Assembly: GCF_004010195.1 (NCBI RefSeq)
Contig: NC_057751.1
Span: forward strand, 19,368,535-19,432,534
DNA from: Chiloscyllium plagiosum
Taxonomy: Eukaryota
Reading direction: 5' to 3'
DNA length: 64,000 nucleotides
Below the pieces are notes generated by a model. It was not told the DNA's origin, did no database searches, and saw nothing but the letters and a program-made list of their open reading frames with translations. Positions 11,580-59,974 of the stretch are shown here, one piece after another (position 1 is the stretch's first letter; each line of letters opens with the position of its first letter). Both the position numbers and the translations under genes were made by a program.

Positions 11580-11985
11580 AAACAAAAGTGTTGCTGGAAA
11601 AGCGCAGTAGGTCAGGCAGCATCCAAGGAGCAGAGGAATCGACGTTTCGGGCATAAGCCCTTCTTCAGGAATGAGGAGGGTGTGCTAAGCGGGCTGAGAT
11701 AAAAAGGTAGGGAGGAGGGACTTGGGGGAGGGGCTTTGGGAATAGATAGGTGGAAGGAGTTTAAGGTGAGGGTGATAGGCCGGAGAGGGGGTGGGGGCGG
11801 AGTGGTCGGGAAGAAGATTTCAGGTCAAGAAGGCGGTGCTGAGTCCGAGGGTTGGGACTGAGATAAGGTGGGGGGAGGGGAAATGAGGAAGCTGGAGAAA
11901 TCTACATTTATCCCTTGTGGTTGGAGGGTTCCTAGGCGGAAGATGAGGCGCTCTTCTTCCAGGCGTCGTGTTGCCATAGTCTGGC
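11580..11985 (-). mobile_element. Penelope-like element 3' fragment with 9-bp TSD
   Basis: GIY-YIG tail (RRLEEERLIFRLGTLQPQGINVDFSSF on -), then the pLTR with a hammerhead core. TSD tttttgcta at 11571-11579 and 11986-11994. Confidence 0.85.
11641..11668 (-). ncRNA. Minimal hammerhead ribozyme core (Penelope-type)
   Basis: On -: CUGAAGA-A-GGGC-UUAU-GCCC-GAAA-CGUC. Confidence 0.7.
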
Positions 11986-12890
11986 TTTTTGCTAGTAGAT
12001 TACATTAATCTTGGTAGAGAGTGTACTGTGATGCACATGGCATCCATTTGCTTTGACCAGGCTGGATAGACCAGAGGGATTTTACTTATATTTCATCACT
12101 GAGTTGGGTTGCCGGAATGTTGCTTGCAGGCAGCTTGTCACCTGTATCCAGAGCTGAGCTAACACTGCATCCGCCAAATGTGACAAAGCTGACTTACTCA
12201 AACAACACTTTTTGACCAAAAACTTGCATATTTGTTTTATTCCTTCACAGAATGAGGGGGAGAATACTCATTCCGAATTGCCCCGGAGAAGATCGTGAGC
12301 TCCCTTCTTGAACCACTGCAGTTTGTTATGTCATTGTAAATTCAAACGTTTATAACCTGTAGATTAAATGACGCGAAAAACTGCTCACAGAAGGTTAATT
12401 ATTTTTGAGCAGGACATTTTTTCCGTCCCGTGCGCCATATGATGTGTTTTGAATAAGGTGAGACACTACAACACAGAAGCACTTGTTGGTTCATTCTTTA
12501 TAATCACGGGTTAACCTGCCACAACACAACACAACATAAACCATAATGTTTTACTCAATTTACTTCATTGCTTCGGTAGCTTCAGAAAGCTACTGTTTAC
12601 CCAGTCAAATCCACTCAGATTGTCAATAGGAAATGATTGTGACAACTCAGTATTATCTATTTGTCTTTAATCTACGATGTAAACTTTAAAATTCACGAAG
12701 CTTCGAAATAAAGTACACGAAAGGAACAAGAGTGAGATAGGTTCGACCTGTCAGTATCAACAAAAATTAAGACTGGAGATCGAACGTCAAATTAATGTTA
12801 ATCAGCCTCTTTCTCTTCACATATGCGGACAGATCTGCGACGTGGCTGTGAAGTAAACTGGAGTTGATCTGTGGCGCGTGTTTTACTCAC

Positions 12891-13117
12891 GGTTCTTTCT
12901 GAACGTCTCCATTCTCATTTTTTTTCACCGGGGACTTCAAGGCTTTTAGGAGGGGATTTCTATCAGCACCGCTCACGCCTCTCGTCGCTCGCCCCCTGGG
13001 GGAATGTTGCCATGTCCACAGTCGATTGACAAAGCTGTTGGGTTTCCCCAAAACATTTTCGACTCGAAAGTGACAGGCTCCAGCTGTGAAGCAAGGTAGT
13101 GATTTTAAACGATGCAT
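12891..13117 (-). CDS. GLS2: Glutaminase, mitochondrial (GLS2-like), coding exon 1 encoding a probable mitochondrial presequence
   Basis: ATG at 13117 opens MHRLKSLPCF...DVQKEP, which is Arg/Lys-rich and poor in acidic residues at the N-terminus. The exon ends at a strong donor (GAACC|GTGAGT at 12890) in phase 2, matching the phase-2 start of the glutaminase exon at 2739. It lies in a CpG-rich region. GLS2 versus GLS/GLS-like paralog is not certain. Confidence 0.8.
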
Positions 13118-13560
13118 TCCTGACTAACACCTAGCGCATTTCCCTCTTCGGTAATATAGTGATCCTTCAACCTCTTTCTCTAATATATCTGCCTAGTCAA
13201 CTCTTCCTTTCTTCTTCCCTTTCACTAACTCCGTTTTTTCCCCTCCTCCCCCACTCGCAGACTGTCAATCAATTTCCCTCCTCTCTTCCATCTATCAATG
13301 TTGAACACGCGGTGCAGGCAAACTTTACAAGTGTAGGTGGGGCCAAAACGACAGGGCTCCCGTCCAAACAGAAACGTCGCTCCCTGGAAGGCGGTGCCCC
13401 GACTCTGTCAGGCTGTCTGGTCATTGCTGACATCAGTTAGATTTGCCACTGGGCTGACGACTGGATGGTGAAAGCGGTGATGACATTATTGACACTTGGC
13501 ATCTATTCTAGTGTGAGGGGAACAGGAGCACGAAAGGTATCACGCAAGAGCTTCTAATTC
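13118..13560 (-). promoter_or_regulatory. Glutaminase 5'UTR/promoter region
   Basis: Non-repetitive sequence with locally elevated CpG, immediately upstream of the exon-1 ATG. CRE-like TGACATCA near 13428. Confidence 0.55.
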
Positions 13561-13594
13561 AGTGCTTCACACCCAGCCCAGGCTGACATGTACA

Positions 13595-14720
13595 TGATAA
13601 AACGAACTGTGGATACTACAGATCTGATACAAAAACAGATATTGCTGGGAAAATTCAGCAAGTCTGGCCAGCATCATTGGAGGGAGAAACAACTAACATT
13701 GAGATCAGTGACCCTTTTTCCAGAATTGATGGTAGCTAGGAAAAGATGATATATATACTGATGACAGGGGTAGGAAGGAGTGAGTGGATAGGTGGAAAGA
13801 GATCGGAGACAGAGAGACAGAAAAGTTAGATAGACAAAGGGAAGAACAAAATGCTGATAATGGGGACCATAAGCAGGTGAAAATGGGTTGGCTGTCTGAA
13901 AGCAGCTCATGTCATAACAGGACCTGGGGTGTGGGACTGGGTAAAGTACATGGAAGGAGGTGGTTAGGCTCTAGAATTACTGAATTTGATACTGAGTCCT
14001 AAAGGCTTCAGGATCCCCAAGCAGAAAATGAGATGCCGATCTTCTAGCTTGTAGGTGATCCACAAAGCTGTGTTTTGTCTCCCCGGGATAGAGGAGATCA
14101 TATTGTGAGCAGCAAATACAGCAAACTAGATTGAATAAGGTGCAGGTAAATCAGTGCTTTCACCTGGAAGGTGTGTCTGGAGCATTGGACAGTGAGGAAG
14201 GAAGAAGCAAGTGGGCAAGTGATGCACCTTATGTGATTGCATGGGAAGGTGCCATATGGGTATAGGGAGGTATTAGGAGTGGAGAAGGACTGGAACATAG
14301 TGTCCTGGAGGGTACAATCCCTGCACAATGCTTACAAGGAAGGGGAGGGAAATATGTGTCTGGTGGCAGCATCTCACTGAGGTGGTGGAAATAGTGACTC
14401 ATGATTTTTTGGATGCAGATGCTGTTGGTGTAGAAAGTGAGGACCTGAGGTGGGGGGTGCGGAACACCTGATCGGTGTTATAGGACAGAAGAGAAGGGGT
14501 GCAGAACTGCAGGAAATGGGTCAGTCATGGCTGAGCGTCCTGTCAACCACAGTGGCAGGAAATACTTGGTTGAGCAAAAAAGTGGACATGTCTAAGGCCC
14601 CAGGAAGGTGGCATCATCAGGACAAATGTAACAGAGATGGAGAAACTGAAACTGGGAGAATGGAATGGAGTCTTGACAGGAAGAAGAGTGTGAGGATATA
14701 TTGTCCAGATACCTGGAATC
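13595..14720 (-). mobile_element. Penelope-like element, decayed RT/GIY-YIG 3' portion and pLTR
   Basis: GTFPCNHIRCITCP...HTFQVK (Cys motif preceding GIY-YIG) and the pLTR end gatctgatacaaaaacagatattgctgg. Confidence 0.8.
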
Positions 14721-15690: not shown

Positions 15691-18196
15691 ATAAAAAGTC
15701 AGCACATTCATCTTGGCCAATAACAACAACAACAACAAAAAATTAAAGGAGACAAGAGGGAAAAAAAAATTGCCCTGCGCATAGCATGGACAACAAACCT
15801 GCATGCCAGTCTGAGACCAGAGTCATATTGAAATTGTCTGTACTTGGAGGAAGGGATACCTACACTTAAGTGTACAGCAACTGTAGATGACTGGACTCAA
15901 GCATTCCTGAAAAATGTCAAGTATCTTCACTGACTCATGGGCATCCCTGGCCTATGACTAAAATGGAGGGCACGAAGTACATTGAGAGACCTCGTTGGTA
16001 ACAGCAGGGGTGAAGTCCTCAAGGCATCAGAGGAAACATACAAGCCCCCCCAACAAGAGTGCATGAGAGTGAGTTCTGGAGCAGAGATGCTAGAGAAAGG
16101 GAGCTGCCATTTGAGGAGCTTGTCTGACTTGCTACTAACGAGTGAGTAGTTTCTAAGGTATTGTGAGTTCTGTGGGAGCAAATATTTGTTTGAGGAGAGG
16201 AGCACTTTCGGGATTGATTGAATTTTCTCCCAGCAGAGATGCTGCTGCACACATTGGCTGAAACGGATCCTTTGTGGACCAGCAACACGATGATTTACAG
16301 AACCAGCTGTGCTCAATAGGAGGCGATGAGTTGGAAGGTTCAGGAGAGAAGTAGAGAGTCCGGACTCTGCCAACTCATCACCTCACCCTCCCTGCTGCTT
16401 CTGTCCTTCCTAAACTCTTGTGCTCGCTGCCTCTCTTGTTTCAACTTTGTCACTGACTATCCCCCATTTCCTGCTTCCTTTGTGCAGTCAGAAGGAGGGT
16501 CTGGGTTCACATGTGACTCCAGGCCTGAAGCAACATGGTTTCTCTCTTAACTGTATCAAATAGAGGTTAAATAACTCCAAATGAGGCAGGAATCCGCAAA
16601 TCACCCTTTATTTACACACGAACAGTCCTTTACTAAAGTATTGCCTCAGCGTCAGCACCATAGTGTCAGTATCTCTGACATTCAACCTTTTTATGTCTGT
16701 CAGGGTTCCCTGATTGAACCAGATTAACAGCCTGAATCAGGGAACTCTTATTCTATGAGATCCAGCTGGTTGATCTTGTGACAATCACTACATCCCTCCC
16801 CCTCTGAGTGTATGGATATAGGCCAGTCTGTTTTACTTGGAGAGCATCCTGGGGTGTTTTAGCACTGAGTCAGGTTCCTCCAACCTGGCATCCGATACAG
16901 ACATGGGAGTTCGCTTCTTGTGCCAGGAGTGCCTTGATAGAATTTCACTCTTTTCCGGTGGCAAAGATGTCAAGGTGGCTACTTCTGTCACCTCCATCTC
17001 TGATTCAGAGGACTTGACAATGTTTGATGGAGACAGTTAATCCACAGATTCCAGCAGCACTTCTGAAAGTTCTGAGGGACAGAGCTTGTTTTGTTCCCAC
17101 ATGTTTAAAAATTTACGGTTTTCAAATGATCCGCATGTTTATTCAGGACTGTCGCACCTACCCAAATTTTAGATGTCACTGGTCCTGATCTTGCATTGAC
17201 CATGCCTCTTACCCATGCAGGGCCATTTCTGTGATTCTTACACCAAACCTTGTCCCCTGTACAAAAATTCTCTTTTGCCTGATGGAGTCTTAGGTCCAGG
17301 ATTGGATTTCCAGATGTTGTTTGACTCTTCTTCTACCTCACCTCCCCCTGCCCCCAGGTCTGGGAAGATCAAACTTAACCTGGTCTTCAACCCATTACAA
17401 CTTTGCCAATGCTATCCCTGTAGTTGCATGTGGGGTGGTCCTATAATCAAAGAACCATGACTGCTTGGTATCTAGTGAGGCTGTAAGCTGTTTCTTCAAT
17501 CCAACCTTCAAAGTTTGGACGCTCTTTCTGCCAGGCTATTTAATGCTGGGTGGTATGGAGCTGTCCTTGTATGTTGAATTATCTGTGACCAACATTTCCG
17601 TGACTCCGTGTGTTGCAGAAGATGTATGCAGTTTTTCTGTTGTTGTTCCAGTCTTTGACGAATAGACTCTATGCACAAGTCCAACCAGTTTGAATCTACA
17701 ATGACTAAGAACACTGAACCCATGAAACGACCTGCATAGTTGATGTGCAACTGAGTCCAAATTTTACCCGGCCATTCCCATAGATGTGGGGGAACTGCTG
17801 GCTTGAACTTTTGTCCTTGTTGATATTCTGGGCACTGCCCCACCAACACAGCTGTGGCTGCATCCAAGCCTGGTCACCAGATATAACGTCTCGCCAACAT
17901 CTTCACTTTGGAAACCCCTGGATGGTCTTGGTGGATTTAACCAGTATTAGATGGCAAGCTTTGTTCAGGACAATTACTCATGCCCCCATAATATTCCATC
18001 CTGTACTGTGAGCTAATCTCTTCAGATCCAAAAACGTTTCAATTCTAGTTGTAATTGCTCCATGGTTTCCCCCATTAATATGAGGTGTTTCAGTTTAAAA
18101 AGGACTGGAATTTTCTGTGTCCAAAGTCTGATATTGTTAACTGTGACTGGGAGTGTGTCCAGAAAATTTAATATCATTATAGACTCTTCCATTGGG

Positions 18197-18291
18197 TGTT
18201 CTGAAGAAGATTCACTGGACCCAAAACATTAACACTGATCTCTCTCCACTGGCAAACCTGCTGACTTTTTCTGGCAGTTTTGGCTTTTGTT
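18197..18291 (+). mobile_element. Short Penelope pLTR-derived insertion with 12-bp TSD
   Basis: TSD tcttccattggg at 18185-18196 and 18292-18303. Degenerate ctgaagaa...caaaac core. Confidence 0.75.
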
Positions 18292-18987: not shown

Positions 18988-19222
18988 CCAAAAGAGAAAA
19001 TGCTGGAAAATCTCAGCAGGTCTGGCAGCATCTGTAAGGAGAGAAAAGAGCTGATGTTTCAAGTCTAACTGACCCTTTGTCAAAGCTTTGACAAAGGGTC
19101 AGTTAGACTTGAAATGTCAGCTCTTTTCTCTCCTTACAGATGCTGCCAGACCTGCTGAGATTTTCCAGCATTTTCTCTTTTGGTTTCAGATTCCAGCATC
19201 CGCAGTAATTTGCTTTTATCCT
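18988..19222. mobile_element. Penelope-derived inverted-repeat insertion (196-bp palindrome plus 39-nt tail) with 14-bp TSD
   Basis: Arms 18988-19085 and 19086-19183 match at 96/98 positions with no spacer. TSD tgggtcacttggag at 18974-18987 and 19223-19236. Confidence 0.92.
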
Positions 19223-20218: not shown

Positions 20219-20544
20219 AGAATCCCTACAGTGTGGAAACAGGCCCTTTGGCCCAACAAGTCCACACTGACCCTCCGAAGAGTAACCTACCCAGACCCAT
20301 TCCCCTACATTTATCCCTGACTGATGCACCTAACCTACACATCCCTGAACAATATGGGCAACTTTAGCACAGTCAATTCACCTAACCTGCACATCTTTGG
20401 ATTGTGGGAGAAAACCAGAGCCCCTGGAGCAAACCCACACAGACACGGGGAGAATGTGCAAACTCCACACAGACCTGCGGTGGGAATCAAACCTGGGTCC
20501 CTGGCACTGTGAAGCAGCAGTGCTAACCACTGAGCCACCATGCC
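20219..20544 (-). mobile_element. V-SINE (HE1-like)
   Basis: Same family as 4374-4675, in reverse orientation. Confidence 0.9.
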
Positions 20545-28692: not shown

Positions 28693-28870
28693 TAGTTGAA
28701 AGTGAGTACAGCAGATGCTGGAGATCAGAATCAAGATTAGAGTGGTGCTAGAAAAGCACAGCAGGTCAGGCAACATCTGAGGAGCAGGAAAATTGACGTT
28801 TCGGGCAAAAGCCCTTCATCAGGAATGATTCCTGACTGACTTGCTGTGCTTTTCCAGCACCCTCTTGACT
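28693..28870 (-). mobile_element. Penelope-derived fold-back insertion with hammerhead core and 13-bp TSD
   Basis: TSD ccata(c/t)agacaac at 28680-28692 and 28871-28883, plus a partial inverted second arm. Confidence 0.85.
28795..28822 (-). ncRNA. Minimal hammerhead ribozyme core
   Basis: On -: CUGAUGA-A-GGGC-UUUU-GCCC-GAAA-CGUC. Confidence 0.7.
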
Positions 28871-28953
28871 CCATATAGACAACAACTACTGCTGCTGCTT
28901 CCCTGATGCTAGAGTGGTTGCAGTACATTGTCAAAGGGGTGCTTTTGCAGCCA

Positions 28954-30645: not shown

Positions 30646-30739
30646 TTTCCTGATGAAGGGTCCTGTCCGAAACATTGACTCTCTTGCTGTTCTGATGCTG
30701 CTGACCTGCTGTGCTTTTTCCAGCTCCACATTTTATCGA

Positions 30740-31240
30740 CCTGATTTGTTCTGGCACAAATCTGCTCCAACTGCTGATTCATAACCTCAGCATTTCAGCA
30801 CAGGTCAACTGCTCTCCTGAGTGTAAGTTTGTTTGCTCTCTGTAGGTGTGCTTTCACTTTTGGATCACGTATCTTGAATGTAATCCTGTCTCTGATCAGC
30901 TCATCCTTTAATTGTGTAAATTCAGATTTCTATGGACTGAGTTAATGACTTTATGTATTGGCCAATGGACAATTTTCTGCTTTGTTCCTGGTATTGAATA
31001 TATTCATGCATAGGATTCACTTGGGGCTCAGAACATGCTTTCAAAGCTTTTAAGCTTCCTGCCATCTGTTTTGTTCTGCTGTTCAGAGAGATTTAGGATG
31101 GAACATATTTTGAACAGTCTCTGTCCAACATGATAGAAGTGCAACAACCTGTACTTGTTCTGGTTTGCTCTACAAATCCATTGTTATTGTGAAATTCTAC
31201 CATTGTTCATGAAAGAATGTAGTAGCATTGTAAATTTGAA
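30740..31240 (-). mobile_element. Old Gypsy gag remnant, probably the same element as 26400-27140
   Basis: On -: LKDELIRDRITFKIRDPKVKAHLQRANKLTLRRAVDLC. Confidence 0.7.
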
Positions 31241-31429: not shown

Positions 31430-31740
31430 GGCATGGTGGCTCAGTGGTTAGCACTGCTTTCTCACAGTGCCAGGGACCTAGGTTCAATTCCACCCTCAGG
31501 TGACTGTCTGTATGTGTGGAGTTTGCACATTCTCTCTGTGTCTGTGTGGGTTTCCCCCAGGTGCTCTGGTTTCCTCCCACAGTCCAAAGATGTGTAGGTT
31601 AGGCGGGTTGGCCATGTTAAATTGCCTATAGTGTGCAGGCTAGGTGGGTTAGCAATGGGAAACGCAGGGATCAGGTGGATGCTTTTTTGAGGGTCTATGT
31701 GGGCTGAATGGCCTGCTTCCACACTGTAGGGATTCTATGA
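31430..31740 (+). mobile_element. V-SINE (HE1-like)
   Basis: A/B boxes, V-domain and tail. Confidence 0.88.
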
Positions 31741-31936: not shown

Positions 31937-32119
31937 GGAGAAAGTGAGGACTGCAGATCAGAGTCAAAATGTATGGTGCTGGAAAATGCGCAGCAAGTCA
32001 GGCAGCATCTGAGGAGCAAGAGAGTCGACATTTTGAGCATAAGCTTCCTGATGAAGAGCTTATGTTTGAAATGACAACTCTCCTGCTCCTCGGATGCTGC
32101 CTGACCAGCTGTGCTTTTT
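31937..32119. mobile_element. Penelope-derived hairpin insertion with 10-bp TSD
   Basis: Inverted arms around a central ctgatgaagagcttatgtttgaaa. TSD agaattataa at 31927-31936 and 32120-32129. Confidence 0.8.
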
Positions 32120-32868: not shown

Positions 32869-33704
32869 CTGTCAAAGGACCAATGTAGATAATGCAGAGA
32901 GAGATGGGAATTGTGGAAGGCACACTTTCACAGGTATATAACAGCCTCAGGTCTCCATTCAAAGTAACATCAGCTCCAGGTCAGTGCTTTCTTATACGTA
33001 ATACATCCCATGGTAGACAATGTCCTTCTGAGACAAGGTGTTCACAAGATCTCTGTAAGGTTTCAGTTGATTCTAACAATATTAGATGCCTTGAACAATT
33101 AACTTGCAGTCCGAAAAGCCAGGGAGTCAGCAAACTCTTTTATTAGTCATTTATTTAGATTGTGGTTATGATATATTGAGGGATGAGCTTATTTGAGCTA
33201 GAATAGTGGTCAGTGTCTCAACAACAAACTGTCTGATGTTTTGTAGTTCAAAGAAGATTTAATGTTAGAGCAGGCAGTTCAACACATGAGGCAAACTTCA
33301 CGAAGACTGTGATACCAGGATGTGTTTAGGATAACTCCAAGGCTCAGTCCCAATCCATTAGCGGGCTAGGCCCAAAGATATCCACCCTGCCCACCAAAAC
33401 GATTGTCAGAGCCAGCAAAAAGCTGGCAAACATCATTTTGAAATGCTTGGAGTGGCCTCTTGTACTGCAATACAACAACAAGATTGCTCAGCAGGGAGTG
33501 TTAACAGTTCTTACCAAGACAAAATTGGATCCTTTCAATAATTTTGTTTTTCTAAGTCACTTTATAAAGGAAAACAATGCAACTCAGTTCCTGAATGACA
33601 TTGAGTTCAAGGAATAGAACAAGAAGTCAACAATTCCTATCCTGTGAGCTGTGAAGCCTTTTCTTCAAATTCTTACACAATTGATATCTTAAGACTTTCT
33701 CGAT

Positions 33705-33835
33705 TTGGAGATACCGGTGTTGGACTGGGGTGTACAAAGTTAAAAATCACACAACACCAGGTTATAGTCCCAACAGGTTTAATTGGAAGCACTAGCTTTT
33801 GGAGCGCCGCTCCTTAATCAGGTGGTTGTGGAGTA
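33705..33835 (-). mobile_element. Second Penelope pLTR family fragment with degenerate hammerhead
   Basis: On -: cacCTGATTAaggagcggcgctccAAAAgctagtg...acctgttgggactataacctggtgttgtgtg. Helix I (cac/gtg) and helix II are intact; two core positions are mutated. Confidence 0.7.
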
Positions 33836-37291: not shown

Positions 37292-39929
37292 TACCTATTA
37301 TGAATAAGGAATTCTGACACATTTGAAATCTCTAGTGTTTTATTTCATCTATTTATGAGAGATCGTTGTTCAATTTAAACTTGATTACTACATTCTAGAA
37401 CAGAATCCATCAGCGGTTTGCTGGAACAAACACAGAGAATGCTATAGAAACTCAGCAGGTCTGGTAGCATCTGTGGGGAGAGAAACAGAGTTAATGTTTT
37501 GAGTTTGGTATGACCCTTCTTTAATTTTCAAGAAGAATTAAACTGATTGAAAATGTTAACTCTGTCCACAAACATCCATTCCCTCCACCACTGATGCTCA
37601 GTCGCAGCTGTGTGCACCATTTAAAAGAAGCAGTGCAAAAATTCCCCAAGGCTCCTTTGACAGCACCATCCAACCCTATGATCACTCCCCATCTAGAAGG
37701 ATGAGGTCTGCAGGTACATGGGAACTCCACTCCCTGCAAATTCCTCTCCAAATCACACACCATCCTTATGTGGAAATATACTGCCATTCCTTCAGTGTTG
37801 CTTAGTAAAAATCCTGGAACTTCCTCCCTAACAGCGTAGTGGGTATACGTACACCAAATGGATTGCAACAGTTCAAGAAGGCAGATTGACACCACCTTCT
37901 CAAGGGCAACTAGGGATGGGCAATAAGTGCTAGCTTAGCCAACAATGTCTATATCCCATGAATGATTAAACAAAGTAAACACAGGAGGCGTGTCACCTGC
38001 CCTTTCACCTCCTTCCTCTCACCAACCAGGGTCCCAAATATTCCTTGCAGATGAAGTAGCAATTTACTGATATTTCTTTGAATTTAGCATACTGTATTCA
38101 ATTCTCACAAAAAAAGTCTCCTCTCTATCACGAAGACCAAACGCAGATCCTGACACAAGGTAATCAAACTGGAAAATTAACCTGTTGCTCTCTCCACAAA
38201 TGCTGCCTGACATACTGAATATTTCCAGCATTTTCTGCTCGTATTTCAGATTTCCAGCACCCACTAGATTTTGCTTATGTACAGTATTCCGGTTATGTAG
38301 ATGTTTTATTAAGAAGTGGCTTAACACAAGGGGGTGCTAGAGATTAAAGTCCCTCAGACTTCAAAAGTTCCAGTTCATAGGCCAGAAATAAAAGAAATAC
38401 CTCTTTAGTCGCACTCATTCGAGCAAAGTATAAATATCAATGTACACCTACTAGAGTAGTCATATATGTCTATATGAAAACAGATTGGACTCCCGGTGTG
38501 ACAGCCATCATGGTTGATTAGCTTACTTCACTGTCTATGATTGAAGGATACCAGTCCTTGTGGAACTGTATCTCAGCAAGTTTCAACACTGGCAGGTAAT
38601 GTGGAGAGCAAAACCAGGAAAAAAAGATTTAGTTTATTTTTTTTTCATTGATTTCCTAAATGATTCCCACCCTGCAAGTATTATATTGTGTCTCAAAACC
38701 AGCTACATCTCACCCTCCTTCATAATTCCATCCTCAATATCTATTCTTGAAATCCACCATTCTCTCTCTAAAATCTCCTTTGTGGTGGAAACTTAAAAAC
38801 TCACTTATTCTATCTCTCCCCTGCTACTGTCTTATGGGTTGAACCTATTCAATGCCGAGGCAAGCCTCTGAACTTATATTCACAAAGTTTCCATGGCCTT
38901 AATGCTCCCCGTCTTTGTTAATTCAGTCCCTTTAACCCAGCACAAAATCTCTATTCCCAGATTTTGGCAGATTGTGCATCCACTCTTCCTTAGCCCCACT
39001 ATTAGTGGCTGTGTCTTCAACCATCTAATTTCTGTGCCCCAGAATACCCCCTCTCGAAACCCTTCTGCCTTTCTGCTTTTCTTCTTTAAAATCCCCCTTC
39101 AACTATGATCAACTTTCCTGATTGATCTTCAGCTTAGTATTGATCATTTTTGATTATGCCTCTGTGAAATACCTTTGGATCTTTTTCTATATTAACAGTG
39201 CTGTATAATGGCAAGTTGTTTTACATTATAATTGCAAGGTCCCATTTGACTTCCTGCTGTAATTATGATTTTAAAAATTAACACGTTTGCCATAAACCCC
39301 CAATATCAAATATGAGCCTATAGTGCCATTAAGGGGAAGTGTCACTAATTTTGCATGTGTATGCTGTGTGAAATTATTCACTTGAGGCAGATTCAAGTAC
39401 AATCTTTGGAAGATAGTACTGTATGTAATGTATACTATTTTCTTGGCATGAATTACACCATTATATATGATGACTTTAAACAGGGTCCCAAAACTCTTTT
39501 CAATACTTTACATGAGCACTAATGCCCTTTTAGTGGTATTCAATAAATTGTGGAATAACACTTCAATGTGAAACTCTGCCCATTCATGAAGACTGTTGTC
39601 TATAAGGGCAACAGAACACAGTTAAAAAGTAGAAACATAAGGATGACATTTTAGTGATTCCTCTTTGTTAAATCCCTGCTCTCCGATATTGCATTGGAAT
39701 TCCCTCCATTTTATGACCTATCTCTTTTATTGGAAACCTACTGAGACCTGTCATTGTTAGCCATGCCTTTGATTCTCATCGAAGGTACTCTCTTTCCTTA
39801 TGTCTTGTAATCAATGTGCCATTTTAAACCTCATTGTAAAAGACTCTGATGTCTTTATGCATGTGAGAAACACTACACAAGTGAAAATTATTGTTGTTAA
39901 TAGTAATAGCTGATAGGCAATTGTTAAAG

Positions 39930-42673: not shown

Positions 42674-42833
42674 AGGTAAAAAAAGGCTGCAGATGCTGGA
42701 AAGAGAGTCTAGATTTGTGGTGCTAGAAAAGCACAGTAGGTCAGGGAGCATCCGAGGAGCAGGAAAATCGAATTGTCTGCTCCTTGGATGCTGCCTGCCC
42801 TGCTGTGCTTTTCCAGCACCACTCTAATCTTGA
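42674..42833. mobile_element. Penelope-derived hairpin insertion with 18-bp TSD
   Basis: TSD ctaaggagactaatggtt at 42656-42673 and 42834-42851. Inverted arms meet near 42770; the ribozyme core is absent. Confidence 0.88.
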
Positions 42834-43639
42834 CTAAGGAGACTAATGGTTGGCCACCAGGCCCATGGCTGAACACTTAACAAGAAGGACTGTAAAAGTG
42901 AACGCTATTTCTCTGGTACAACACTTTTCACTGTATTTTGTAACAAAATATACATGATAATAAATATATTGAGTCTAGTTCTACCGAATGTACAACTCAA
43001 ATAACTTGTTACATTAGGTGAGGATAGAATTGTTAAGCTCTCTAAAGGTTAGGTAATTGGCGAATTCCTGTGTGAAAGTTCAAAAATTAAGAATAGCCAC
43101 TCCATCGAGGTATTCGAAAATACTAGAAGAATCCCAGTTTCCCAGTAAAAGCGCACACTCACGGTGGAAATAAAGGCAATTAAAAATGCAATCTATTTTA
43201 GTATATGCTACTCCCACAAGCAAAAGGGCCTTCACGTGCAATTTTTCCCAAAGCCTTAACGCCACCCCCCATCCTTGTAACCTTCTTCAGACCTGTAATC
43301 GTCGGTAATCTAAACGCTCTTCCAATTCGAGCCTCTGGCACATACTGCTCAATGTCTATCACTGGTAACCATCATTCAACTGCGTACGACCACACCTCTA
43401 GCATTCCCTTCCAAAACTTCCCACCTAACTCTGTTCTCTTTGAAGGGTCTCGTTTAAACCTACTTATTTGATAGAGCTTTGTCAGCTGACCTAATTTTTT
43501 ATGAGATTGCGTCAAATTTTGCTTGACAATATTCTTACGAAGCAGTTCGGAACATTTCACTTTAACTGAGTTTACAGATAAAGGTCATTAGGTCTTTACT
43601 CAAATTACTGGTCAGTTCAAAGGCAACATCCGGCAGATG

Positions 43640-44500
43640 TTGGAAATCTGAAAGAAACAGAACTGCTTGGACCACTCAGGTCAGGCAGTATCCGCGGATA
43701 GACAAATAAAGGATTCTGGTGGAAAACCTTTTACTCATCTCTGATCATAAGTCCAACGTTTGGTATTTTCATAGACATTGCTTTTCCTAACATGACTCAA
43801 CTTGCCAGAAGATTAATAAAATTATTTGCCTTTTCACTTGTGTAATTGATCGCCGACAGGGTAGGGTTAATGTTTCTGGCGTTGTCTTGCTACTGACAGC
43901 CGTGGTGTGTTGTTTTTTTCTGGGTGCAGTGTTGCTGCTGGATTTTCGACCAATCACTAGAAAAGCGAAAACAAACTATTTTCACGGGGAGGAACTCATG
44001 CCACACAAGCGGAAACCTCTCGAACTTCGAGCGGTAGAGCCGTCCGCAGTTTCGTTTTGTCTCCAAATAGCAAATAGTCAGACGCGCAGGAAAATATTGT
44101 CTTTCTACTATTAAAGAAGCTTGTTCAGGAAAAAAAAAGCTGCAAGTCAGAACACAAAAAGTGTAGATACAAGGATTAAATGGAAAAGAATTCACCTGTG
44201 CTTTTGATGTGAGGTAAAGTGGGCCAAACTCGGGCGTGTTCGACTTTCGTTTGGACTGAAAAGTTGAAGTCTCTTTGATTGCCCCTTTTTTTTTGTCCCG
44301 AATCCAAAGTTTTCAGAAGGAACAAACCAAGTGCGTCTAGTTTTTAATGATTTTTGTTTGTTGTTTGTTTTAAATCGCTAGCCCCAACCGGCTGTCACTT
44401 TTCCGCTGAAAACCTTTCGTAATGTTGGAAAGCAAACTATTAGTTTAATTCTGGACGTTTGTCTCGAAAGAAACAAACGAACGCTTTTTTACGAATTGTA
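43640..44500 (+). promoter_or_regulatory. CpG-rich promoter and probable non-coding first exon of an unidentified divergent gene (donor near 44213/44214)
   Basis: CpG-dense unique sequence with CCAAT near 43950 and donor GAG|GTAAAG near 44214. No recognisable coding exon in the following 20 kb. Confidence 0.5.
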
Positions 44501-46359
44501 TAAATATGCAGATTTAAATCGTTAGATTTGTGATGTGGTTATATTTATCGGTATTATTTTGATTCAAGGTTTAGTAAGAAAAACTTGAGGCTAATGGAGC
44601 CAGAGATAAATGTTGGCAATGGACCTTCGAGCCAATTGGAAAAGCACTGTCTGTGTTAGACAAACCCAGTTATATTTTCCCCTCTTCCAATTGGTTAACG
44701 CAGATGCTAATCATGATGGTCACCCATCCTGATTAGGCCAACGTGGGACTTTAGTGCGATTAAAAACAGAAAATGTTGGCAGTTGGGTTAAGCAGTTTAT
44801 GTGGAGAAGAACCATAATCAATGTTTCAGTCCGATAACTATTCATCAGAATGCAGTACAGAAATAACGAGTTACTACCATTTGAGCACGTTTAAAAACAT
44901 GCTTTGAAAGTCAAGCAACTCGCTCGAATATGAAGTTTAATCAAAAATAGTTAAGTCACAAACTGGATTTTTAAGTGTTTGGCTTGTAGTGACCATAACT
45001 AAAATGCTCATGTTCATTGTTTTATGATTGTATGTGTCACTTTAGAAACAGGATTAGATTATTTGACCCCTCGAGATCGTGGTTGATTTGACGGCGAAAT
45101 CCACACCCCTTTCTGTCTGTCATCTCCATAACTTTTGACTCCTTTAAACGTTTCTCCCACTTCGATAATCTAAACCATAATATTGACGTCGACTACCATG
45201 TATGATGGTCATGTGTTCCTTAACACCGCCCAAATATTATTCGATCTGTGCTTTCCAGCAAAAATTATGACTAGTTTACAGGTATGATGACTATGGTGTT
45301 TTACCCTATATAACAGGTGCTAATTTTAAAAGAACAAGCAAGTATACGAATTTGTCTGAGACCTATGTACGTGAAAGTATGCTTCATAACGCGCAGCTTC
45401 CATCATTCAGTAACAGTATTAAACTAAACAGTGATTGGTGGTTAACTGTATGCACATAATGGTTAAGCAGTCCTCTTATGCTGCCGACTATGTTTGCACT
45501 TTGTAGCAAGCATCCAGATCAGGAGTCGTGGTTAATGTTCTTCCTAGTCTGTGGCACGGGCTGATTGTGGTTTCTCAACTACCACCCTGGCTGAAGTGCT
45601 ACCAAGACTTTATTATTCAGTCACCTATGCCAATATTTAAAATTCAAACTTGGAAAATTACAATGCCTGATAACCATTTTTAGATTTTACAACTCAAGTT
45701 TCTGACTGACAACGTGTCCTATGTGAAAAAGTGCATTAGTTTGTAAGCAGTAGCAAAATAGATATGCCTCTAAATGGGTTTGCCTTGTTTATTTGTGATT
45801 TGATTTAATTTTAAAGCATCTCTTTGTGAAAATCAACACCAGCTTCTCTGAAGTTCATACTCTCAATTCTCATCGTTTGCAATAATTTTCTTGCAATCTA
45901 CAGGTTTTCAAAATCAGATGCAGTATAATCTATTACTTACTTGGGTTTAAGATTGATTTTAACAGATTGAAAACAAACTAGAATAAATGTACTGTTTTCA
46001 GGTTGGCAGGATGTAACTGCAGTTTTGCAAGGTTGCCAGTGAGTAGACTGGAGGGCACAAAAGTTGCAAAGGAGATTAAATTGAGGAAATTTGAAATTAT
46101 CCACTTGGATGTGATAGTAGAATATTCTTTAACCAGTAAGAGACTAGTAAAAATAAAATACTGTGGATACCTGAGAATGTGTGGCCATGCAGCTCCTGAG
46201 AGACCCTGTACACATTTGGTCAGGAGGTCTGGTCGCATCTATGCAGGGAGAACAGTTAGTGTTTCAAGTCCAATTCTGTATTGCTCTAAACCTTGGTGCG
46301 CAGAGGTCTTTGGATGTCTTAGTGCATGTTAACTTTGTGATTTTTGTTGGTGCAACAAT

Positions 46360-47144: not shown

Positions 47145-47975
47145 GTCAAGAATATGGCACTAGAAAAGCACAACAGGTCAGGCAGCATCCGAGGAGCAGG
47201 AGAGTTGACGTTTTGGTCATAAGCCTTTCATTAGGTAGGGGTAGGTTGGTGGGGGTGGGGGGGGCGGAAGGTAGCTGCGAAGGCAATAGGTAAATGCAGG
47301 TGGGGGTAATTGTGAGGTCGGTGGAGTGGGTAGGTGGAAAGGAAGATGGACAGGTAGAACAAGTCAAGATGGTGGTGCTGAATTGGAGGGTGGATGACCT
47401 GGTGGCCCAGTGGTTAGCACTGCTGCCTTGCAATGCCAGGGGCCTGGGTTCGGTTCCAGCCTCGGGTGACTGTCTGTGTGGAGTTTGCACATTCTCCTTA
47501 TGTCTGCGTGGGTTTCCTCTGGGTGCTCTGGTTTCCTCCTACAATCCAAAGATGTGCAGGTTAGGTGAATTGGCTATGCTAAAATTGTCCATAGTGTTCA
47601 AGGATGTGTAGGTTAAGTGCATTAGTCAGGGGTAAATGTAGAGCAGTAGGGGAATGAGTCTGGCTGGGTTACTCTTCGGAGGGTTGGTGTGTACTTGTTG
47701 GGCCGAAGGGCCTGTTTTCACACTGTAGGAATTCTGCCTATTCTATAAGGTGATCTGGGATGAGGATAGGGTAGGGGAGATTTGGAAACTAGTAAAGTCG
47801 ATGTTGATAGCATGTGGTTGAAGGGTCCTAAGGTGGAAGATGAGGTTTTCTTCCTCCTTTCGTTGGATGGCTTGGATTTGGCAGTGGAGGAGGCCCAGGA
47901 CTTGCATATCCTTGGTGGAGGGGGAGTTGAAGTGGTTGGCCACAGGGCGGTGGGGTTGTTTGGTGCATGAGTCCT
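47145..47975 (-). mobile_element. Penelope 3' fragment interrupted by a V-SINE
   Basis: ANHFNSPS...EEENLIFHLRTLQPHAINIDFTSF at 47743-47943, with the pLTR at ~47145-47395. Confidence 0.82.
47401..47735 (+). mobile_element. V-SINE (HE1-like)
   Basis: A/B boxes, V-domain and tail. Confidence 0.9.
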
Positions 47976-49099
47976 AGAGAGTTGAGTCCACCACGTATGC
48001 CAGTTGAGATAAGAACAGCATGTTTTCTTCAAAGGACGTGGGTGAACCAGATCATTGTTTTTACAACATTGTAACCATTGCCGTGGACCATTAGACTAGC
48101 CTTTTATTACATAAGTTTTAATTAAATTCAGACTTCACTATCTGCCATTCAAACCTATGTCTCCAGAAGATTAGCCTGGGGTTCTGGATTACTAATCTAG
48201 TGACAGTACCACTGCCTTTCTTTTGGCAGTCAGATCTCTTGAATCAGGTTTTCATTAGTCTTTATGCCTTGGGATTCAGAATATATTCTTGATTATCAAT
48301 TTGTGCCATGTTTCTTTCCTGGTCAGTTTTGTATTCTGCTTTCAATTTAAGTGAATGGAATGAATCACAAACATCAGATCCCCATTGTTTGTCTCTTTAA
48401 TACAAACCAAAATAGGAGCCCTAATCTGAGGAAGGGTAACTGGAACTGAAGCATTAACTCTGATTTTTCTTCGTAGATGCTGCCAGACATGCTGAGCTTT
48501 TCCAGCAACTTGTGGTTTTGTTTGATTTACAGTGTCTGTAGGTCTTTCAGTCCTAATCTGAAATTCAGCTGCCTTGAATACAACTGATATGAAAAAGTTG
48601 GGTTCTGTATGACTGACTACTTCTCAATGAACTAGAGGTTCTTAAAAGAGCCATATGTATTCTTGGCTCTCATTTCTAATTTTTAATTGAGGATCGAGGT
48701 GCACAATTTTGTGTGTCTTGACTCTACCCTTTTTGTCACAGGTGTTATTCCTTGCATTCAATTGATGTTTGGCTGGTGCAAATAAATTCCCAGGCCTGTG
48801 TGCCTGACTCGCCATTAACTAAATAGCTGAGCAGTACATCAGTTTTCCAATCTAAAGCACAATTCGCTGAATCTGGAGCGCTGTAGAAAATTAACACCTG
48901 AATCTCTTCACCAGTTTCTTTGAATATCTTAGATTGCTAGAGATTTGTCTTCATGTTTTTGTGTAGGACGCAGTCTACATGCTATTTTAATGTGCTAATT
49001 TGTTTGTTCTAAATGGGATTATGCCTATTAACTGTTAAAATAGTTCCAGAGGGGTGTCATCAGAATGTGGTTGTTTTGTAATTGGCAGTGCATATTAAT

Positions 49100-49660
49100 A
49101 AAGGTGTTTCTGAAATGGCGGGAATATCTATGAAGAGAGCTTGGGCAAACTGGGCCTGTATTCTCTAGGGTTTTGATGAATGACAGGTGATTTTGTTGAA
49201 ACTTGCAAACTACTAAGGAATAAACAGGTTAAATGCAGGGGATGATGTTTCCCATGGCTGGGCAGTCTAATAGCAAGGTAGACAAGCAGGCGGCTGCCTG
49301 GGTTGCTGTGTTCTTCCAGCCCTCCTGCCTGTCTACTTTTAGATTCTAGCATCTGCAGGGTTTTTTTTGTGTCTCTATCCCGGTCTAGTACCAGGGGCAT
49401 AATTTTAAAATAAAAAGGATGCCACTTGGATCTGAGGTGTGAAAAGTTTTTTTTAATCAGGGTTGCGAACCCTTTAAAATTCTCTACCTCAGAGAGGGCT
49501 GTGGAGGTTCAGTCTGAGTATGTTTAAGATAGCAATTGATTTCCGTTTACTAATGGTGTACGGGGCTGTGAGGACGGGATGACAAAAAAGTCCTGAAGCG
49601 TTTATCATTGTATTGAATGGTGGGGCAGGCCTGATGGACTGACTGGCCTGCTGTTCCTGT
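49100..49660 (+). mobile_element. CR1 3' fragment with a small Penelope-type insert at ~49280-49378
   Basis: tatgaagagagcttgggcaaactgggcctgtattctcta..., then a CR1-type tail. Confidence 0.7.
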
Positions 49661-56327: not shown

Positions 56328-56510
56328 CCCCACCCCCACCCTCCTCTAGCTTATCTCTCCACGCTTCAGGCTCTCTGCCTTTATTCCTGATGAAGGGCTT
56401 TTGCCCGAAACGTCGATTTTGCCTGTCCTCGGATGCTGCCTGAATTGCTGTGCTCTTCCAGCACCACTGATCCAGAATCTGGTTTCCAGCATCTGCAGTC
56501 ATTGTTTTTA
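56328..56510 (+). mobile_element. Penelope pLTR insertion inside an older LINE 3' fragment (~56225-57095)
   Basis: pLTR text ...cctgatgaagggcttttgcccgaaacgtcg...ccagcatctgcagtc interrupts ...ctattgacc|agaagctgaattgg. Confidence 0.82.
56387..56414 (+). ncRNA. Minimal hammerhead ribozyme core
   Basis: CUGAUGA-A-GGGC-UUUU-GCCC-GAAA-CGUC. Confidence 0.72.
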
Positions 56511-57387
56511 CCAGAAGCTGAATTGGACTAGCCATATGAATACGGTGTACAAGAGCAGGTTTAAGATCAAGAATTCTGCTGTAATTCTCCACCTATCTCC
56601 CCAATGCCTGTCCTCTGTCTACAACATACAGGAGTGTAATGGAATATACTCCACTTGTCTGGGTGACTGCCACTCCAATAAAACTATTCGGGACAAAGCA
56701 ACCTAATCTATCAATTCAACATTCACTCTTTCCACAAACGCACAATGGTAGCAGTGTATGCAATGTATAAGGTGCTCTGCATCAACTAGTCAAGGCTTTT
56801 CTGACACCACCTTCTGAACCTGTGACTTCTGCCCTTTCAAAGGATAAGGGCAGCAGACACATGGACACATTACCTTCAGGTTCCCCTCCAAACCCCCCAC
56901 CATCCTGACTTGGGACTATATTGCTGTTCCTTTGCTCGGTCATAATTCTGGTCTCTCTCTCATAGTATTGTGACTGTCTGTACGCCCAATGACTGCAGCA
57001 GTTCAAGAAGGTCACCATCACCACCTTAGGGCAACTGGGATGGGCAATAAATACTGGCCTAGCCAGTGATGCCCACATCCATGAACAAAAATACCATTAT
57101 CTTTAGAATCATAAAATGGTAACAACATCAAAGGAGGCTTTGGAGGAAAAAAATGAAAGCATAAAACCACCACTGCACTGGTATGGGCAGTGACACATTC
57201 TGGTCAGGATTTTGAAAGTAGCAATAGTAAAACCACCGCACCCTCCCCAAGCACTTTGTACTGCTGGTTTTACTTTAATGTGTTTCTGTATCAGTCATCT
57301 GTGGAATTTGAGTATGCAGCAACATTCTGGATTAGTGGTGCTGGAAGAGCACAGCAGTTCAGGCAGCATCCGAGGAGCAGTAAAATT

Positions 57388-57415
57388 GACGTTTCAGGCA
57401 AAAGCCCTTCGTCAG
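57388..57415 (-). ncRNA. Minimal hammerhead core in a short Penelope fragment (~57325-57420)
   Basis: On -: CUGACGA-A-GGGC-UUUU-GCCU-GAAA-CGUC, with a G-U pair closing helix II. Confidence 0.6.
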
Positions 57416-57550
57416 GAATACAGGCTGACTTGGACAGTTTACAATCCACAGGACTCTTCGTATCTTTAACATTGTATCTATCCTGTGTACCTTTATCAAC
57501 CACCAAGTTTGTTCAAATAGTTTTAAAAAATACAATTCACTGACTCCTAG

Positions 57551-58074
57551 TATGACGATGCTGTCACTTTTTAAACAAGGTGATTTTGTTCTTGGGTTTT
57601 TGAGAGCGGTCATAAAGGCAGAGGTGCTGAGGGGTTTGGAAAGACCCTGCTTGTAAAATTGCAGGGGAGTGGCCAGTTCTCTGTTTGGTTTAGCTGTAGC
57701 AGTCACAAGATAATGAAGTCCAAGAATGATTGAAAACTTCAGATACCTGACTGACTTTCTCTCTGGATGTTGTTCCCTCCTGCCCATAAGAATGTGTTTC
57801 AATTTACCTTTTGCCAAGGGGTGTGTTTATGGAATGTATTGGATTGGAATAGTTCCTTTTGAGTTGCTGTATTGGGTCCAACAGTTAAGTTATTCTAAAT
57901 TCTGTTTTCTTTTGTTAGTGTTTCAACTGTAGTGTTTAAATAAAGCGGAGTGATTTGACCAGCTTCATCACACCTGGAATTTCCACTTCACATCTGCCTT
58001 TAAAAATAAGAAAAAGTTAGGGTCTAGGCTACCTTTTTAAAATATTTTAAGGGAGTCTAGCCTGGTCCATAACA
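57551..58074 (+). mobile_element. Probable solo LTR
   Basis: Ends ...ccataaCA and starts tatga, consistent with a TGTTATG terminus missing 3 nt. ctag on both flanks. AATAAA near 57939. Confidence 0.55.
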
Positions 58075-59797
58075 CTAGCAAATAACCACTGTCATGACTG
58101 ACTGACTTGGGAAAGTGTGCTGATATTTAAGCCCAACTATGCCCAGGGTTGGCACAAACGTAGATTTAATCAAATTACTCAAAGTCTCTAGTTTTCCTGT
58201 CTAAATTCAAGGCAAGAGAAAATGCTGATCAGGTTTCTGTACTTTAAAAGGAATTACTATATATTATAAAGAAAGTTGTGACTGAGGGTCTGGTCACCAT
58301 GCTGACTTGTGCCTTTTGTGGAGAGGCTTTGGAGAGTTTGGGAGGTGAGTTACTCACTGCAGAATTCCCAGAATAATGGTTCTTCTATGGCTTAGAAAAT
58401 CTCTAGTTAGACTTTCAGTTGATTTGGTTTTCCTCTTTCTCTCCACCCCCACCCTCACCTCCCAAAAAAGGATGTTGTGATGCCATTGAATGTAAGAAGG
58501 CGATGGTAACTTTGTTACTTTTTTTCATAATGGCACTGTGAAGCATGAATGATACTTGCCACTTATCCCCAGGTCTTATTGCATGTGACATGGACTGCTT
58601 TGGCTTCATGAATGAAGAAGTCAAACGTCCCCTCCTCTGCCCTTTTTATGTTGAAGGGAAGTCATTGTCGAAATAGCTGAAGGCAGTTGAGCCTAGATAC
58701 TACCCTGAGAAATTCTTGCTGTGGTGTTCTGAGGTTTAAATTGAGCTTCCAACAGCCACAATCAGCTTCCTTTTGTGCAAAGTATGATTTCTTCAATCAA
58801 TAAAGATTTTCCCAGATTCCCACTGACTTCAGATTTTTGCAGGGGCTTCTTTGTTGTCATATTAAGGCAGCATTTGACGGAATGTCAAGGACGGTCACTC
58901 CCACCTCACTTCTGGAATTCATCTCCTCTTATGCATGTTTGTATGAAGACAGTTGTATATTTAAAATGTTGACAGACTAGACCAGTTTGCCTGGGTGTGT
59001 TCATCTTAGAATTTAGCAATACATTTAATAGTGGATACAAACTGTTTTGAGAAACACAATCTATGGTTCACCTATTTTCTGTATTGGCCATAAAAAAGAG
59101 CAATTCAGTTTAATTCTACTTAGTCTCAAGTCCTGTTCAACACATGTATGAGTTTGCGTTTCTACCACCCTTTCAGAGCATGATTTCCAGGACCCCACCC
59201 CCACTACTGATCTGGGTGAAAAAAATTCTCCACTTGCCTCTACCTTCTGCTAATTACATTAAATCATGTCCTTTTGTTATTAACCCTTCTATTAAAGGTC
59301 CTTCCTGAGAATTCTATCCAGGCTGTCAATTTTATGCATTTTAGAAAGCGTCTTCTCTCAGCTGCCTTACAGGGCTGTAGGAATTTAGCATCAACATTTT
59401 TATAAATTTCCTGTGTACTCTCCACACAATTACATCCTTCCTTTTTAATGTATTAACCAGAGTTGTATGCAGCACTCTCGCTGTGGTCTGATTTAGGATT
59501 TCGTTACTGTTTTTCATTGCTCTTGAATTCCACGCCTTAGTTAAAAAGGAAATTTACTTGCCTTTATTCGCCATCTGTCATATGTTACTTCACTGTGCAC
59601 CAACTGAGGTGACTTAGGCCAAATAGCTACTCCGTGGTCTCCAAGATTGTTTGTTTGTTTGTTTGTTTTTATTGTGAAGACAAAGTTGGGTAAAATGCTG
59701 CGTGAATTATTGTTTTTTTTTAAAAGCCTTTGTGCTGTTATGAGCATCAGATGTTTTCTGTACTCGTGTTTGTGCATCAGGTCCAGAACATCCTACT

Positions 59798-59974
59798 AGG
59801 AGAAAGTGAGGTCTGCAGATGCTGGAGATCAGAGTCGAAAGTGGGGTGCTGGAAAAGCACAGCAGGTCAGGCAGCATCCGAGGCGCAGGAGAATCAACAT
59901 TTCGGGCATAAGCCCTTCATCAGGAAGTATACTGCCTAACCTGCTGTGCTTTTCCAGCACACTACGCCCTTCAC
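59798..59974 (-). mobile_element. Penelope-derived fold-back insertion with 15-bp TSD and hammerhead core (59896-59923)
   Basis: TSD ccagaacat(c/g)ctact at 59783-59797 and 59975-59989. Core CUGAUGA-A-GGGC-UUAU-GCCC-GAAA-UGUU. Confidence 0.85.

Follow-up and report, generated by a model that had tools for sequence, protein, structure and literature searches.

Short hammerhead-bearing copies of Penelope-like elements in a shark genome and a candidate 5' boundary at helix I

The 64,000-nt stretch of Chiloscyllium plagiosum contig NC_057751.1 analyzed here (positions 19,368,535 to 19,432,534; hereafter the window, numbered from its first letter) contains many short sequences with minimal hammerhead ribozyme motifs of the type found in Penelope-like elements (PLEs). 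This locus raises the question whether such sequences are independent, ribozyme-processed mobile units or debris of autonomous PLEs. An initial annotation had proposed the former. Our analysis favours the latter: the short copies are by-products of autonomous PLEs and not retrozymes (probability about 0.85), and, judging from sequence, they are likely dead-on-arrival copies of PLE 3' ends, because the module of hammerhead and tail is common to longer, endonuclease-bearing copies. The favoured 5' boundary of the copies is the upstream edge of hammerhead helix I, approximately 32 nt upstream of the predicted cleavage site.

Hammerheads and endonuclease remnants

Comparison of the window with itself identified 20 PLE insertions (80 bp to at least 0.9 kb) comprising 25 arms and belonging to about four families. 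The 18 tabulated hammerhead motifs fall into four families (A-D), consistent with the at least three seen initially. The five best motifs of the initial annotation, 11641-11668(-), 28795-28822(-), 56387-56414(+), 57388-57415(-) and 59896-59923(-), were verified in coordinates and strand, and the degenerate ones listed with them were also found. The initial estimate of about one unit per 5 kb falls between the density of PLE insertions, which is higher (about one per 3 kb), and that of intact ribozymes, which is lower (about one per 16-32 kb).

Each of these five motifs is composed of the helix I 5' strand, CUGANGA, an extra A, a 4-bp helix II, GAAA, a helix III stub (a two-base palindrome in the listed motif layout), an NUH triplet and the helix I 3' strand. 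The core, the helix II with an extra nucleotide and the G10.1-C11.1 pair, the palindromic helix III and the short helix I are those of PLE minimal hammerheads, and these features uphold the identification of the motifs as PLE hammerheads that lack a normal helix III. They are PLE minimal type I hammerheads, a class that may self-cleave as dimers or with the assistance of protein; for solo minimal hammerheads, a lack of cleavage has been reported. The minimal hammerheads surveyed in metazoans are similar in the extra nucleotide (A9/G10.1), the G10.1-C11.1 pair, the palindromic positions 15.2-16.2 and the short helix I, and include thousands of solo motifs ascribed to truncated PLEs, as well as close opposite-strand pairs (PMC4209133). 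Helix II has 4-5 bp here, in contrast to 7-8 bp in Schistosoma, and the results and discussion of that paper do not name sharks (PMC4209133). The family B core has U3-A8 in place of C3-G8, a variant reported in the same survey from Schistosoma PLEs (PMC4209133); at 19083-19094 it is observed in both family B arms together with a perfect 4-bp helix I.

A strict descriptor (the core, helix II of at least 4 bp, palindromic helix III, NUH and three of the four helix I pairs) matches the window twice, at 11668(-) and 56387(+), compared with a mean of 0.02 and a maximum of one chance match in 100 order-1 and 100 order-3 Markov simulations. The core, GAAA, palindromic helix III and NUH are all kept in four of the 18 motifs (11668, 28822, 56387 and 57415), and three of the four helix I pairs are additionally kept in two of the 18, the remaining 14 motifs being broken. 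The motif at 59896-59923, considered intact or nearly intact in the initial annotation, is present, but its helix III is non-palindromic and its triplet is GUU. Many defects fall in CpG positions (G12 is replaced by A in four motifs, and G1.1 by A in four of the eight family A copies). Helix I varies by family in a concerted manner: AUUC/GAUU in A, AGCU/AGCU in B, GUU/AAC in C, and CAC/GUG in D. Since the helices covary between families, the fold was likely under selection in active ancestors; in the present copies it is decaying. Higher conservation of the core than of the flanks was discarded as evidence, because the seven family A copies compared had been selected by the core motif (cells deviating from the majority: 3/77 in the core vs 31/308 in the tail).

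The Rfam scan of the window at E<=5 matched no hammerhead family; its 11 matches, all under the gathering score, were rejected as hairpin matches, nine of them being to microRNA- or small-RNA-type models on the fold-backs at 19086 and 42770. The predicted folds of single copies (hammerhead plus tail, five sequences) are no more stable than those of shuffled sequences (z from -1.3 to +1.1). The exact motif scan of metagenome and viral contigs yielded zero loci in each.

The hosts had been described as encoding little or nothing. This does not hold for the copies at 11641, 47207, 13700 and 38149, which contain remnants of the PLE endonuclease open reading frame (ORF). These four of the 20 insertions extend upstream from the hammerhead into endonuclease sequence (UTR, untranslated region; TSD, target site duplication):

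11580..11985, minus strand: 406-bp 5'-truncated family A copy with the endonuclease end (last ~40 GIY-YIG codons), a pyrimidine-rich 3' UTR, hammerhead and short tail; 9-bp TSD
11641..11668, minus strand: intact minimal type I hammerhead of this copy; helix I strands 11672-11669 and 11640-11637
47145..47990, minus strand: older family A copy with the endonuclease C-terminus (47955-47773) and a decayed hammerhead at 47234, split by a SINE-like (short interspersed element) repeat at ~47400-47760
13600..14500, minus strand: old copy of at least 0.9 kb, upstream end not fixed, with a frameshifted CX4CxxC linker and GIY-YIG, a 3' UTR, a decayed hammerhead (~13723) and a tail
37920..38280, plus strand: endonuclease-to-hammerhead copy, in which coding sequence (to ~38147) abuts the hammerhead (nucleotide 3 at 38150), with no ORF end or 3' UTR; score 41 vs random 95th percentile 23

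Homologues matched the window by tblastn at 47955-47770, 14361-14052, 11974-11852 and 38027-38101. The remnant in 11580..11985 shares 73% identity over 41 aa with protein P0001 (E 2e-16), the one in 13600..14500 matches P0054 (E 3e-8), and a 61-aa piece from 47773-47955 retrieves 56 proteins at E<=0.001. The ten homologues of this piece that were looked up include four whale shark gene models (among the best), four from skates or rays, and one sea urchin reverse transcriptase (RT)-endonuclease. Longer homologues were missed by the word-indexed protein search and recovered by a profile-free scan. Pfam GIY-YIG is matched weakly, under the curated cut-off, by four of the 12 scanned homologues, and the window pieces by themselves have no Pfam GIY-YIG match.

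The C-terminal GIY-YIG endonuclease upstream of the terminal repeat is the arrangement of endonuclease-bearing (EN+) PLEs. A Cys linker (CX2-5CxxC) ahead of GIY-YIG marks the Neptune and Nematis clades (PMC8557442); a CX4CxxC linker lies in the 14101-14331 frame, and the Neptune-type linker or part of it is contained in two of the four ORF-bearing hosts. EN+ PLEs encode a telomerase-like RT in one ORF with the endonuclease; P0054 joins a weak RVT_1 match to the linker and GIY-YIG, and the 64-kb window contains no RT remnant. The homologues and the linker indicate that the source elements were probably Neptune-type; for family A, whose copies do not cover the linker region, this clade is putative. 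Protein P0009, an NCBI model of a skate neuromedin-U receptor, ends in a PLE GIY-YIG C-terminus, probably as a gene-model artefact and possibly by exonisation.

Short and long copies have one 3' module in common, and the long ones run on into the endonuclease ORF; both family A and the B/C-type tail are found in long ORF-bearing copies. The window copies combine a pseudo-long terminal repeat (pLTR) containing the hammerhead, an inverted 5'-truncated copy and a 30-40-bp tail at a single end, in agreement with the published PLE pattern of an inverted truncated copy and a 30-40-bp tail at one end (PMC8557442 Fig. 2, PMC3846280). Neptune/Nematis EN+ units likewise have the GIY-YIG C-terminus upstream of a hammerhead pLTR, strong 5' truncation, an adjacent inverted truncated copy, the one-end tail, variable or absent TSDs and the linker, observed here in the 13600-14500 copy (PMC8557442; PMC3846280). 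Most PLE insertions are 5'-truncated with a single terminal repeat (bioRxiv 10.64898/2026.07.22.740005). Unlike the Neptune/Nematis units described in these sources, the window copies mostly retain only the terminal 80-240 bp, and the first base of helix I is where their 5' ends accumulate.

Positions of the 5' ends

The 5' ends of 22 arms, placed by hand, range from within the tail to at least 770 nt upstream of the hammerhead. The random continuum of 5' truncation that the initial annotation had set against its own proposal is therefore seen, yet with a sharp hotspot: nine of the 22 arm ends lie 0-5 nt before hammerhead nucleotide 3, in seven of the 20 insertions and three families. The boundary is fixed by a TSD or a palindrome centre in six of the seven, and by loss of homology only at 30650. 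The hotspot insertions are the following:

28693..28870, both strands: 178-bp head-to-head fold-back, long-tail arm on minus (hammerhead 28795-28822); both arms stop 4-5 nt before nucleotide 3, internal deletion in the short arm; 13-bp TSD (1 mismatch)
59798..59974, both strands: 177-bp fold-back, long-tail arm on minus with a decayed hammerhead (59896-59923) stopping 3 nt before nucleotide 3, short arm of tail only; 15-bp TSD (1 mismatch)
31937..32119, both strands: fold-back, long-tail arm ending within helix II, sense arm beginning 3 nt before nucleotide 3 (32048); 10-15-bp TSD
30647..30745, plus strand: decayed family A copy, homology beginning ~3 nt before nucleotide 3 (30650); no TSD found
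18988..19222, both strands: 235-bp near-perfect family B fold-back centred on the helix I 5' strand AGCT (19084-19087); 14-bp TSD
18197..18291, plus strand: 95-bp family C copy beginning 4 nt before nucleotide 3 (18201); 12-bp TSD
48426..48551, plus strand: family C copy with long tail, 5' end overlapping the TSD at nucleotide 3; 10-13-bp TSD

In the fold-back at 28693..28870, the short arm skips from the hammerhead start to the tail via a shared CCTGA (28827-28845), a microhomology deletion. Three further arms stop at the cleavage site, and in the copy at 38149 endonuclease sequence is joined directly to nucleotide 3. Under a smooth exponential model of truncation the hotspot has p from 4e-4 to 4e-6 for 7/19 and from 0.014 to 6e-4 for 5/19, with the window of positions chosen post hoc and n=19. 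The remaining insertions are:

56328..56510, plus strand: family A copy with ~59 nt of 3' UTR, intact hammerhead (56387-56414) and long tail; no TSD found
57325..57425, minus strand: family A copy with hammerhead 57388-57415 and short tail, 5' end ~10 nt ahead of nucleotide 3; no TSD found
42676..42833, both strands: fold-back of two tail-only arms, centre TCGA (42768-42771) spanning the predicted cleavage site; 18-21-bp TSD
43625..43710, minus strand: tail-only copy beginning near the predicted cleavage site
49290..49370, plus strand: tail-only copy without hammerhead, from self-comparison
44769..44890, minus strand: decayed family C-like copy, hammerhead at 44848; 9-12-bp TSD
4200..4290, plus strand: decayed family C hammerhead with short tail, 5' end not placed
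37430..37530, minus strand: decayed family C hammerhead with tail, 5' end not placed
33690..33830, minus strand: unrelated family D copy with decayed hammerhead (nucleotide 3 at 33821; AGCU as helix III palindrome), neither end placed

Upstream extension of the copies at 4204, 37524 and 44848 is not clearly above random, and of these only the TSD-bounded 44848 copy was assigned a 5' end.

The initial annotation had given most hosts their own 9-18-bp TSDs. A direct repeat scoring at least 9 at the expected ends exists in only nine of the 20 insertions, with neither of the headline hosts 56387 and 57388 among them; such a score was reached by chance in 11 of 300 random 60x60 searches. Repeats scoring 7-8 were discarded as chance, as was a 9-mer at 13607/14763 from a wide search. 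The 3' ends form two classes, separated by approximately 35-40 nt. Head-to-head fold-backs enclosed by a TSD account for five insertions, all of which have one long and one short tail. A fixed-length family was rejected for the three fold-backs of 177-183 bp, since their inner junctions differ.

The boundary was then compared with three sets of DNA contigs (from three related species) and one raw RNA run, aligned to 11500-12100 at 80% likeness. Position 11672, the first base of helix I, is followed by loose ends in 319, 372 and 370 contigs of the three DNA sets; these have a median length of 255 and a near-random agreement of 0.32, as expected of unrelated flanks. Among the loose-end rows listed, 11672 is the only upstream-side end with long unrelated flanks, in every DNA set. 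The three species likely share old insertions, and thus their contig counts are not independent. Among the joints listed with letters in between, ten of 12 have one side at 11668-11673, and nine of these ten connect to 11636-11641, where the second strand of helix I meets the cleavage site. Skip joints beginning at 11669-11676 number five, each in one or two contigs. The joint at 37920-38150 resembles them, and is a candidate template jump after run-off.

Could the hotspot be an artefact, with purely random truncation and alignment of subfamilies that are alike only in the hammerhead-tail module? Upstream sequences do vary between subfamilies, and the loose ends at 11672 in the RNA run resemble the upstream sequence of another subfamily. 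Still, six insertions of the window are bounded by a TSD or a palindrome centre, independently of alignment, and the loose ends of the DNA sets are long and near-random, so that we regard this explanation as very improbable.

Another explanation, unlikely in our estimate but less so than the artefact, accepts the copies as truncated PLE ends and ascribes the hotspot to helix I itself, where RT or cDNA joining would be favoured, or to a splice acceptor. The cDNA could fold back between the helix I strands, or ATT could serve as microhomology with the preferred cut of the endonuclease. Inverted joints do connect the two helix I strands, and the fold-back centres are self-complementary 4-mers (AGCT, TCGA). 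However, RT stalls would be expected at the near (3') side of RNA structure, and not at the far side, where the boundary lies. Both junction clusters of family A are situated on ATT (11672-11670 and 11639-11637), but in families B and C, whose helix I strands contain no ATT, the boundary is the same, and the TSDs have no common ATT. In the anole PLE, ATT is the preferred cut (PMC11167929). As for splicing, AG is found 2 nt before nucleotide 3 in families B and C, and in D. virilis the end of the intron coincides with helix I, but family A has no AG at that site.

Origin of the short copies

Provided that the hotspot is real, it is rather probably explained by RT run-off at a discrete RNA 5' end located at helix I. 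More tentatively, with odds somewhat below even, we propose that mRNAs of shark Neptune-type PLEs start precisely at the hammerhead's first base, and that an RT start about 100 nt downstream would yield strong-stop-like run-off cDNA, which would be integrated very abundantly or would jump templates into fold-backs and tandem pLTRs.

The PLE protein would nick DNA and start reverse transcription inside its RNA at two tail sites. The two classes of 3' ends in the window fit two such sites. In vitro, reverse transcription of the anole PLE begins internally at two sites, both of them downstream of the hammerhead, which accounts for the tail (PMC11167929). The PLE mRNA would begin inside the upstream pLTR, so that the hammerhead and the tail would lie near the RNA 5' end; in D. 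virilis Penelope, a TATA-less internal promoter lying 46 nt ahead of a 75-nt intron drives transcription that starts within the pLTR (PMC2377424). Priming in the upstream tail would give run-off cDNA of ~90-130 nt ending at the RNA start, that is, the short copies, and priming in the downstream, read-through tail would give longer, randomly truncated copies with ORF remnants. The cDNA end might then join the target, fold back, pair with a second cDNA or jump on the RNA, the outcomes being solo insertions, head-to-head fold-backs and joints of endonuclease sequence to the hammerhead. Once inserted, the copies decay, presumably neutrally. The ribozyme would be a passenger of the pLTR. As the favoured 5' end lies upstream of the cleavage site, the template would be mostly uncleaved there, which weighs against ribozyme-processed units; the minority of ends at the cleavage site may derive from cleaved RNA.

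The Anolis Poseidon element PAc is similar in that its two internal RT starts downstream of the hammerhead explain the tail, and its protein cuts and extends both target strands, with no need of ribozyme cleavage for insertion (PMC11167929). It belongs to another clade, and the main text of that study maps 3' ends and contains no 5' hotspot at helix I (PMC11167929).

Wherever the element sequence reaches it, the position 4 nt upstream of nucleotide 3 is occupied by A in families A, B and C: in TCATTCC at 11674-11668 (A), in the centre AGCT (B) and in TCAGTT at 4198-4203 (C). Transcription initiators have a pyrimidine-A consensus, and the contexts in families A and C fit it. The consensus of the loose ends behind 11672 opens with C on the plus strand (11673) in all three DNA sets. 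This corresponds to a sense-strand G that is absent from the 11641 copy, and it is one consensus letter given without frequencies. A reverse-transcribed cap would leave a sense-strand G, and it is possible that this letter is a cap-templated base.

Several observations weigh against run-off at a helix I start. The window copies of PLEs are partial, hence the position of the ORF start and the promoter in the element is a matter of inference. Subfamilies diverge just upstream of 11672, which may pile alignment ends there and inflates the depth step. The contig counts come from the 24 of 1,529 loose-end rows listed, six for each run, with the ranking rule unstated and no counts for neighbouring bases. 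The table for the RNA run has no pile-up of molecule starts, although a polyA single-cell library could hardly show one. The three fold-backs mentioned above are nearly equal in length, although their inner junctions differ. Finally, the transcription start of D. virilis is ~120 nt upstream, and its intron end maps to helix I (PMC2377424, PMC4209133).

The initial proposal assumed non-autonomous, ribozyme-processed, retrozyme-like units mobilised in trans by PLE proteins; as a rival reading, such retrozyme- or SINE-like mini-elements would propagate from master copies of their own. Its attribution of the copies to the PLE RT/GIY-YIG protein holds; self-propagating, retrozyme-like units are unsupported, and we consider them improbable. 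The common 5' boundary and the many copies consisting only of hammerhead and tail are what such units would produce, and this module greatly exceeds the ORF end in abundance (the depth ratio, not to be taken as copy numbers, is ~20-fold in RNA reads and ~4-fold in contigs). Moreover, pLTR sequences are sufficient for mobilisation in trans (PMC3846280), and pLTR-derived tandem retrozymes have been reported in vertebrates, including one chondrichthyan (bioRxiv 10.64898/2026.07.22.740005).

On the other hand, retrozymes are defined as tandem units (PMC7229834; bioRxiv 10.64898/2026.07.22.740005), and no hammerhead occurs in tandem units within the window (0/6 tandem arrays). The insertions do not form an ORF-independent unit of fixed length, given their range of sizes and the four that enter the ORF. 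The 5' boundary differs from the cleavage site and is repeated in unrelated families. Neither the window nor the joints listed show circular permutation at the cleavage site. The broken state of most motifs also argues against such units, as does the prediction that fold-back transcripts form long hairpins (63-88% paired). In metazoans, non-LTR retrozymes are similarly small, non-coding and pLTR-related, with a type I hammerhead; they form head-to-tail repeats (150-450 bp), their hammerheads are for the most part canonical and their circular RNA is abundant (PMC7229834; bioRxiv 10.64898/2026.07.22.740005), whereas the window copies, solo or head-to-head in arrangement, bear minimal hammerheads and are continuous with coding sequence of PLEs.

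The raw RNA run (~2% of which was read) gave 3,021 reads in both orientations, 97% of them continuing into unlike sequence. It was set aside as evidence of ribozyme activity, since the reads stem from other copies in host transcripts. The 15 joints listed, of 64 in all, include none from this run, a polyA single-cell library being ill-suited to detect circular RNA joined at the cleavage site.

Neighbouring sequences and the meaning of the boundary

Other repeats are abundant in the window. A dispersed SINE-like repeat, which we take to resemble shark HE1/V-SINE, is present at 47400-47760, 4378-4673, 20218-20474, 31439-31737 and 52090-52366; the first copy is younger than the 47207 PLE, because it interrupts it. 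Many RT fragments of long interspersed elements (LINEs) were found, presumably CR1-like by their motifs (5716-6296, 9552-10367, 27686-29678 and 60423-61350), with a 75-N gap (29329-29403) inside the region 27686-29678. Overlapping ORFs of 174-246 aa with Cys-rich motifs at 62349-63406(-) presumably represent the 3' portion of a LINE of the Tx1/L1 type. ORF pieces resembling integrase and protease at 17508-17873 and 19530-19976 (minus strand) are, we assume, an old LTR retrotransposon, the target of the 18201 and 19086 PLE insertions. An exact 181-bp tandem duplication (100% identity) at 43-406 is either recent or an assembly artefact, and a degenerate minisatellite-like array of 70-80-bp units without hammerhead lies at 23718-24283.

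The literature already contains minimal hammerheads of PLEs, solo motifs of truncated copies, and tailed inverted insertions. Solo minimal hammerheads derived from truncated PLEs have been on record since 2014, and as a catalogue entry those described here are ordinary. Neither the 5' hotspot at helix I nor a shark-specific catalogue was reported in the full-text literature searched, with most subscription papers and Repbase outside its scope. The initial annotation, which was not aware of such units being catalogued as a system in sharks, agrees with this; a published survey of tandem retrozymes covers one chondrichthyan.

What the PLE hammerhead does and how inverted and tandem insertions arise are described in the literature as open questions (PMC8557442, PMC11167929). 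Given a single-base hotspot at helix I and a lesser one at the cleavage site, the matter becomes testable from genome data alone, since such hotspots reveal the end point of the template RNA or cDNA and the frequency with which cleaved RNA is used. For annotators, it should be noted that TSD-flanked palindromes can mimic miniature inverted-repeat transposable elements, SINEs and microRNA hairpins. For the study of PLE transposition, the boundary at helix I is a modest and testable lead. If the bolder form of the run-off reading is true, the genome would be a fossil map of the points of RNA start, RT start and template jumping, and would show that the usual template is headed by the uncleaved rather than the cleaved ribozyme.

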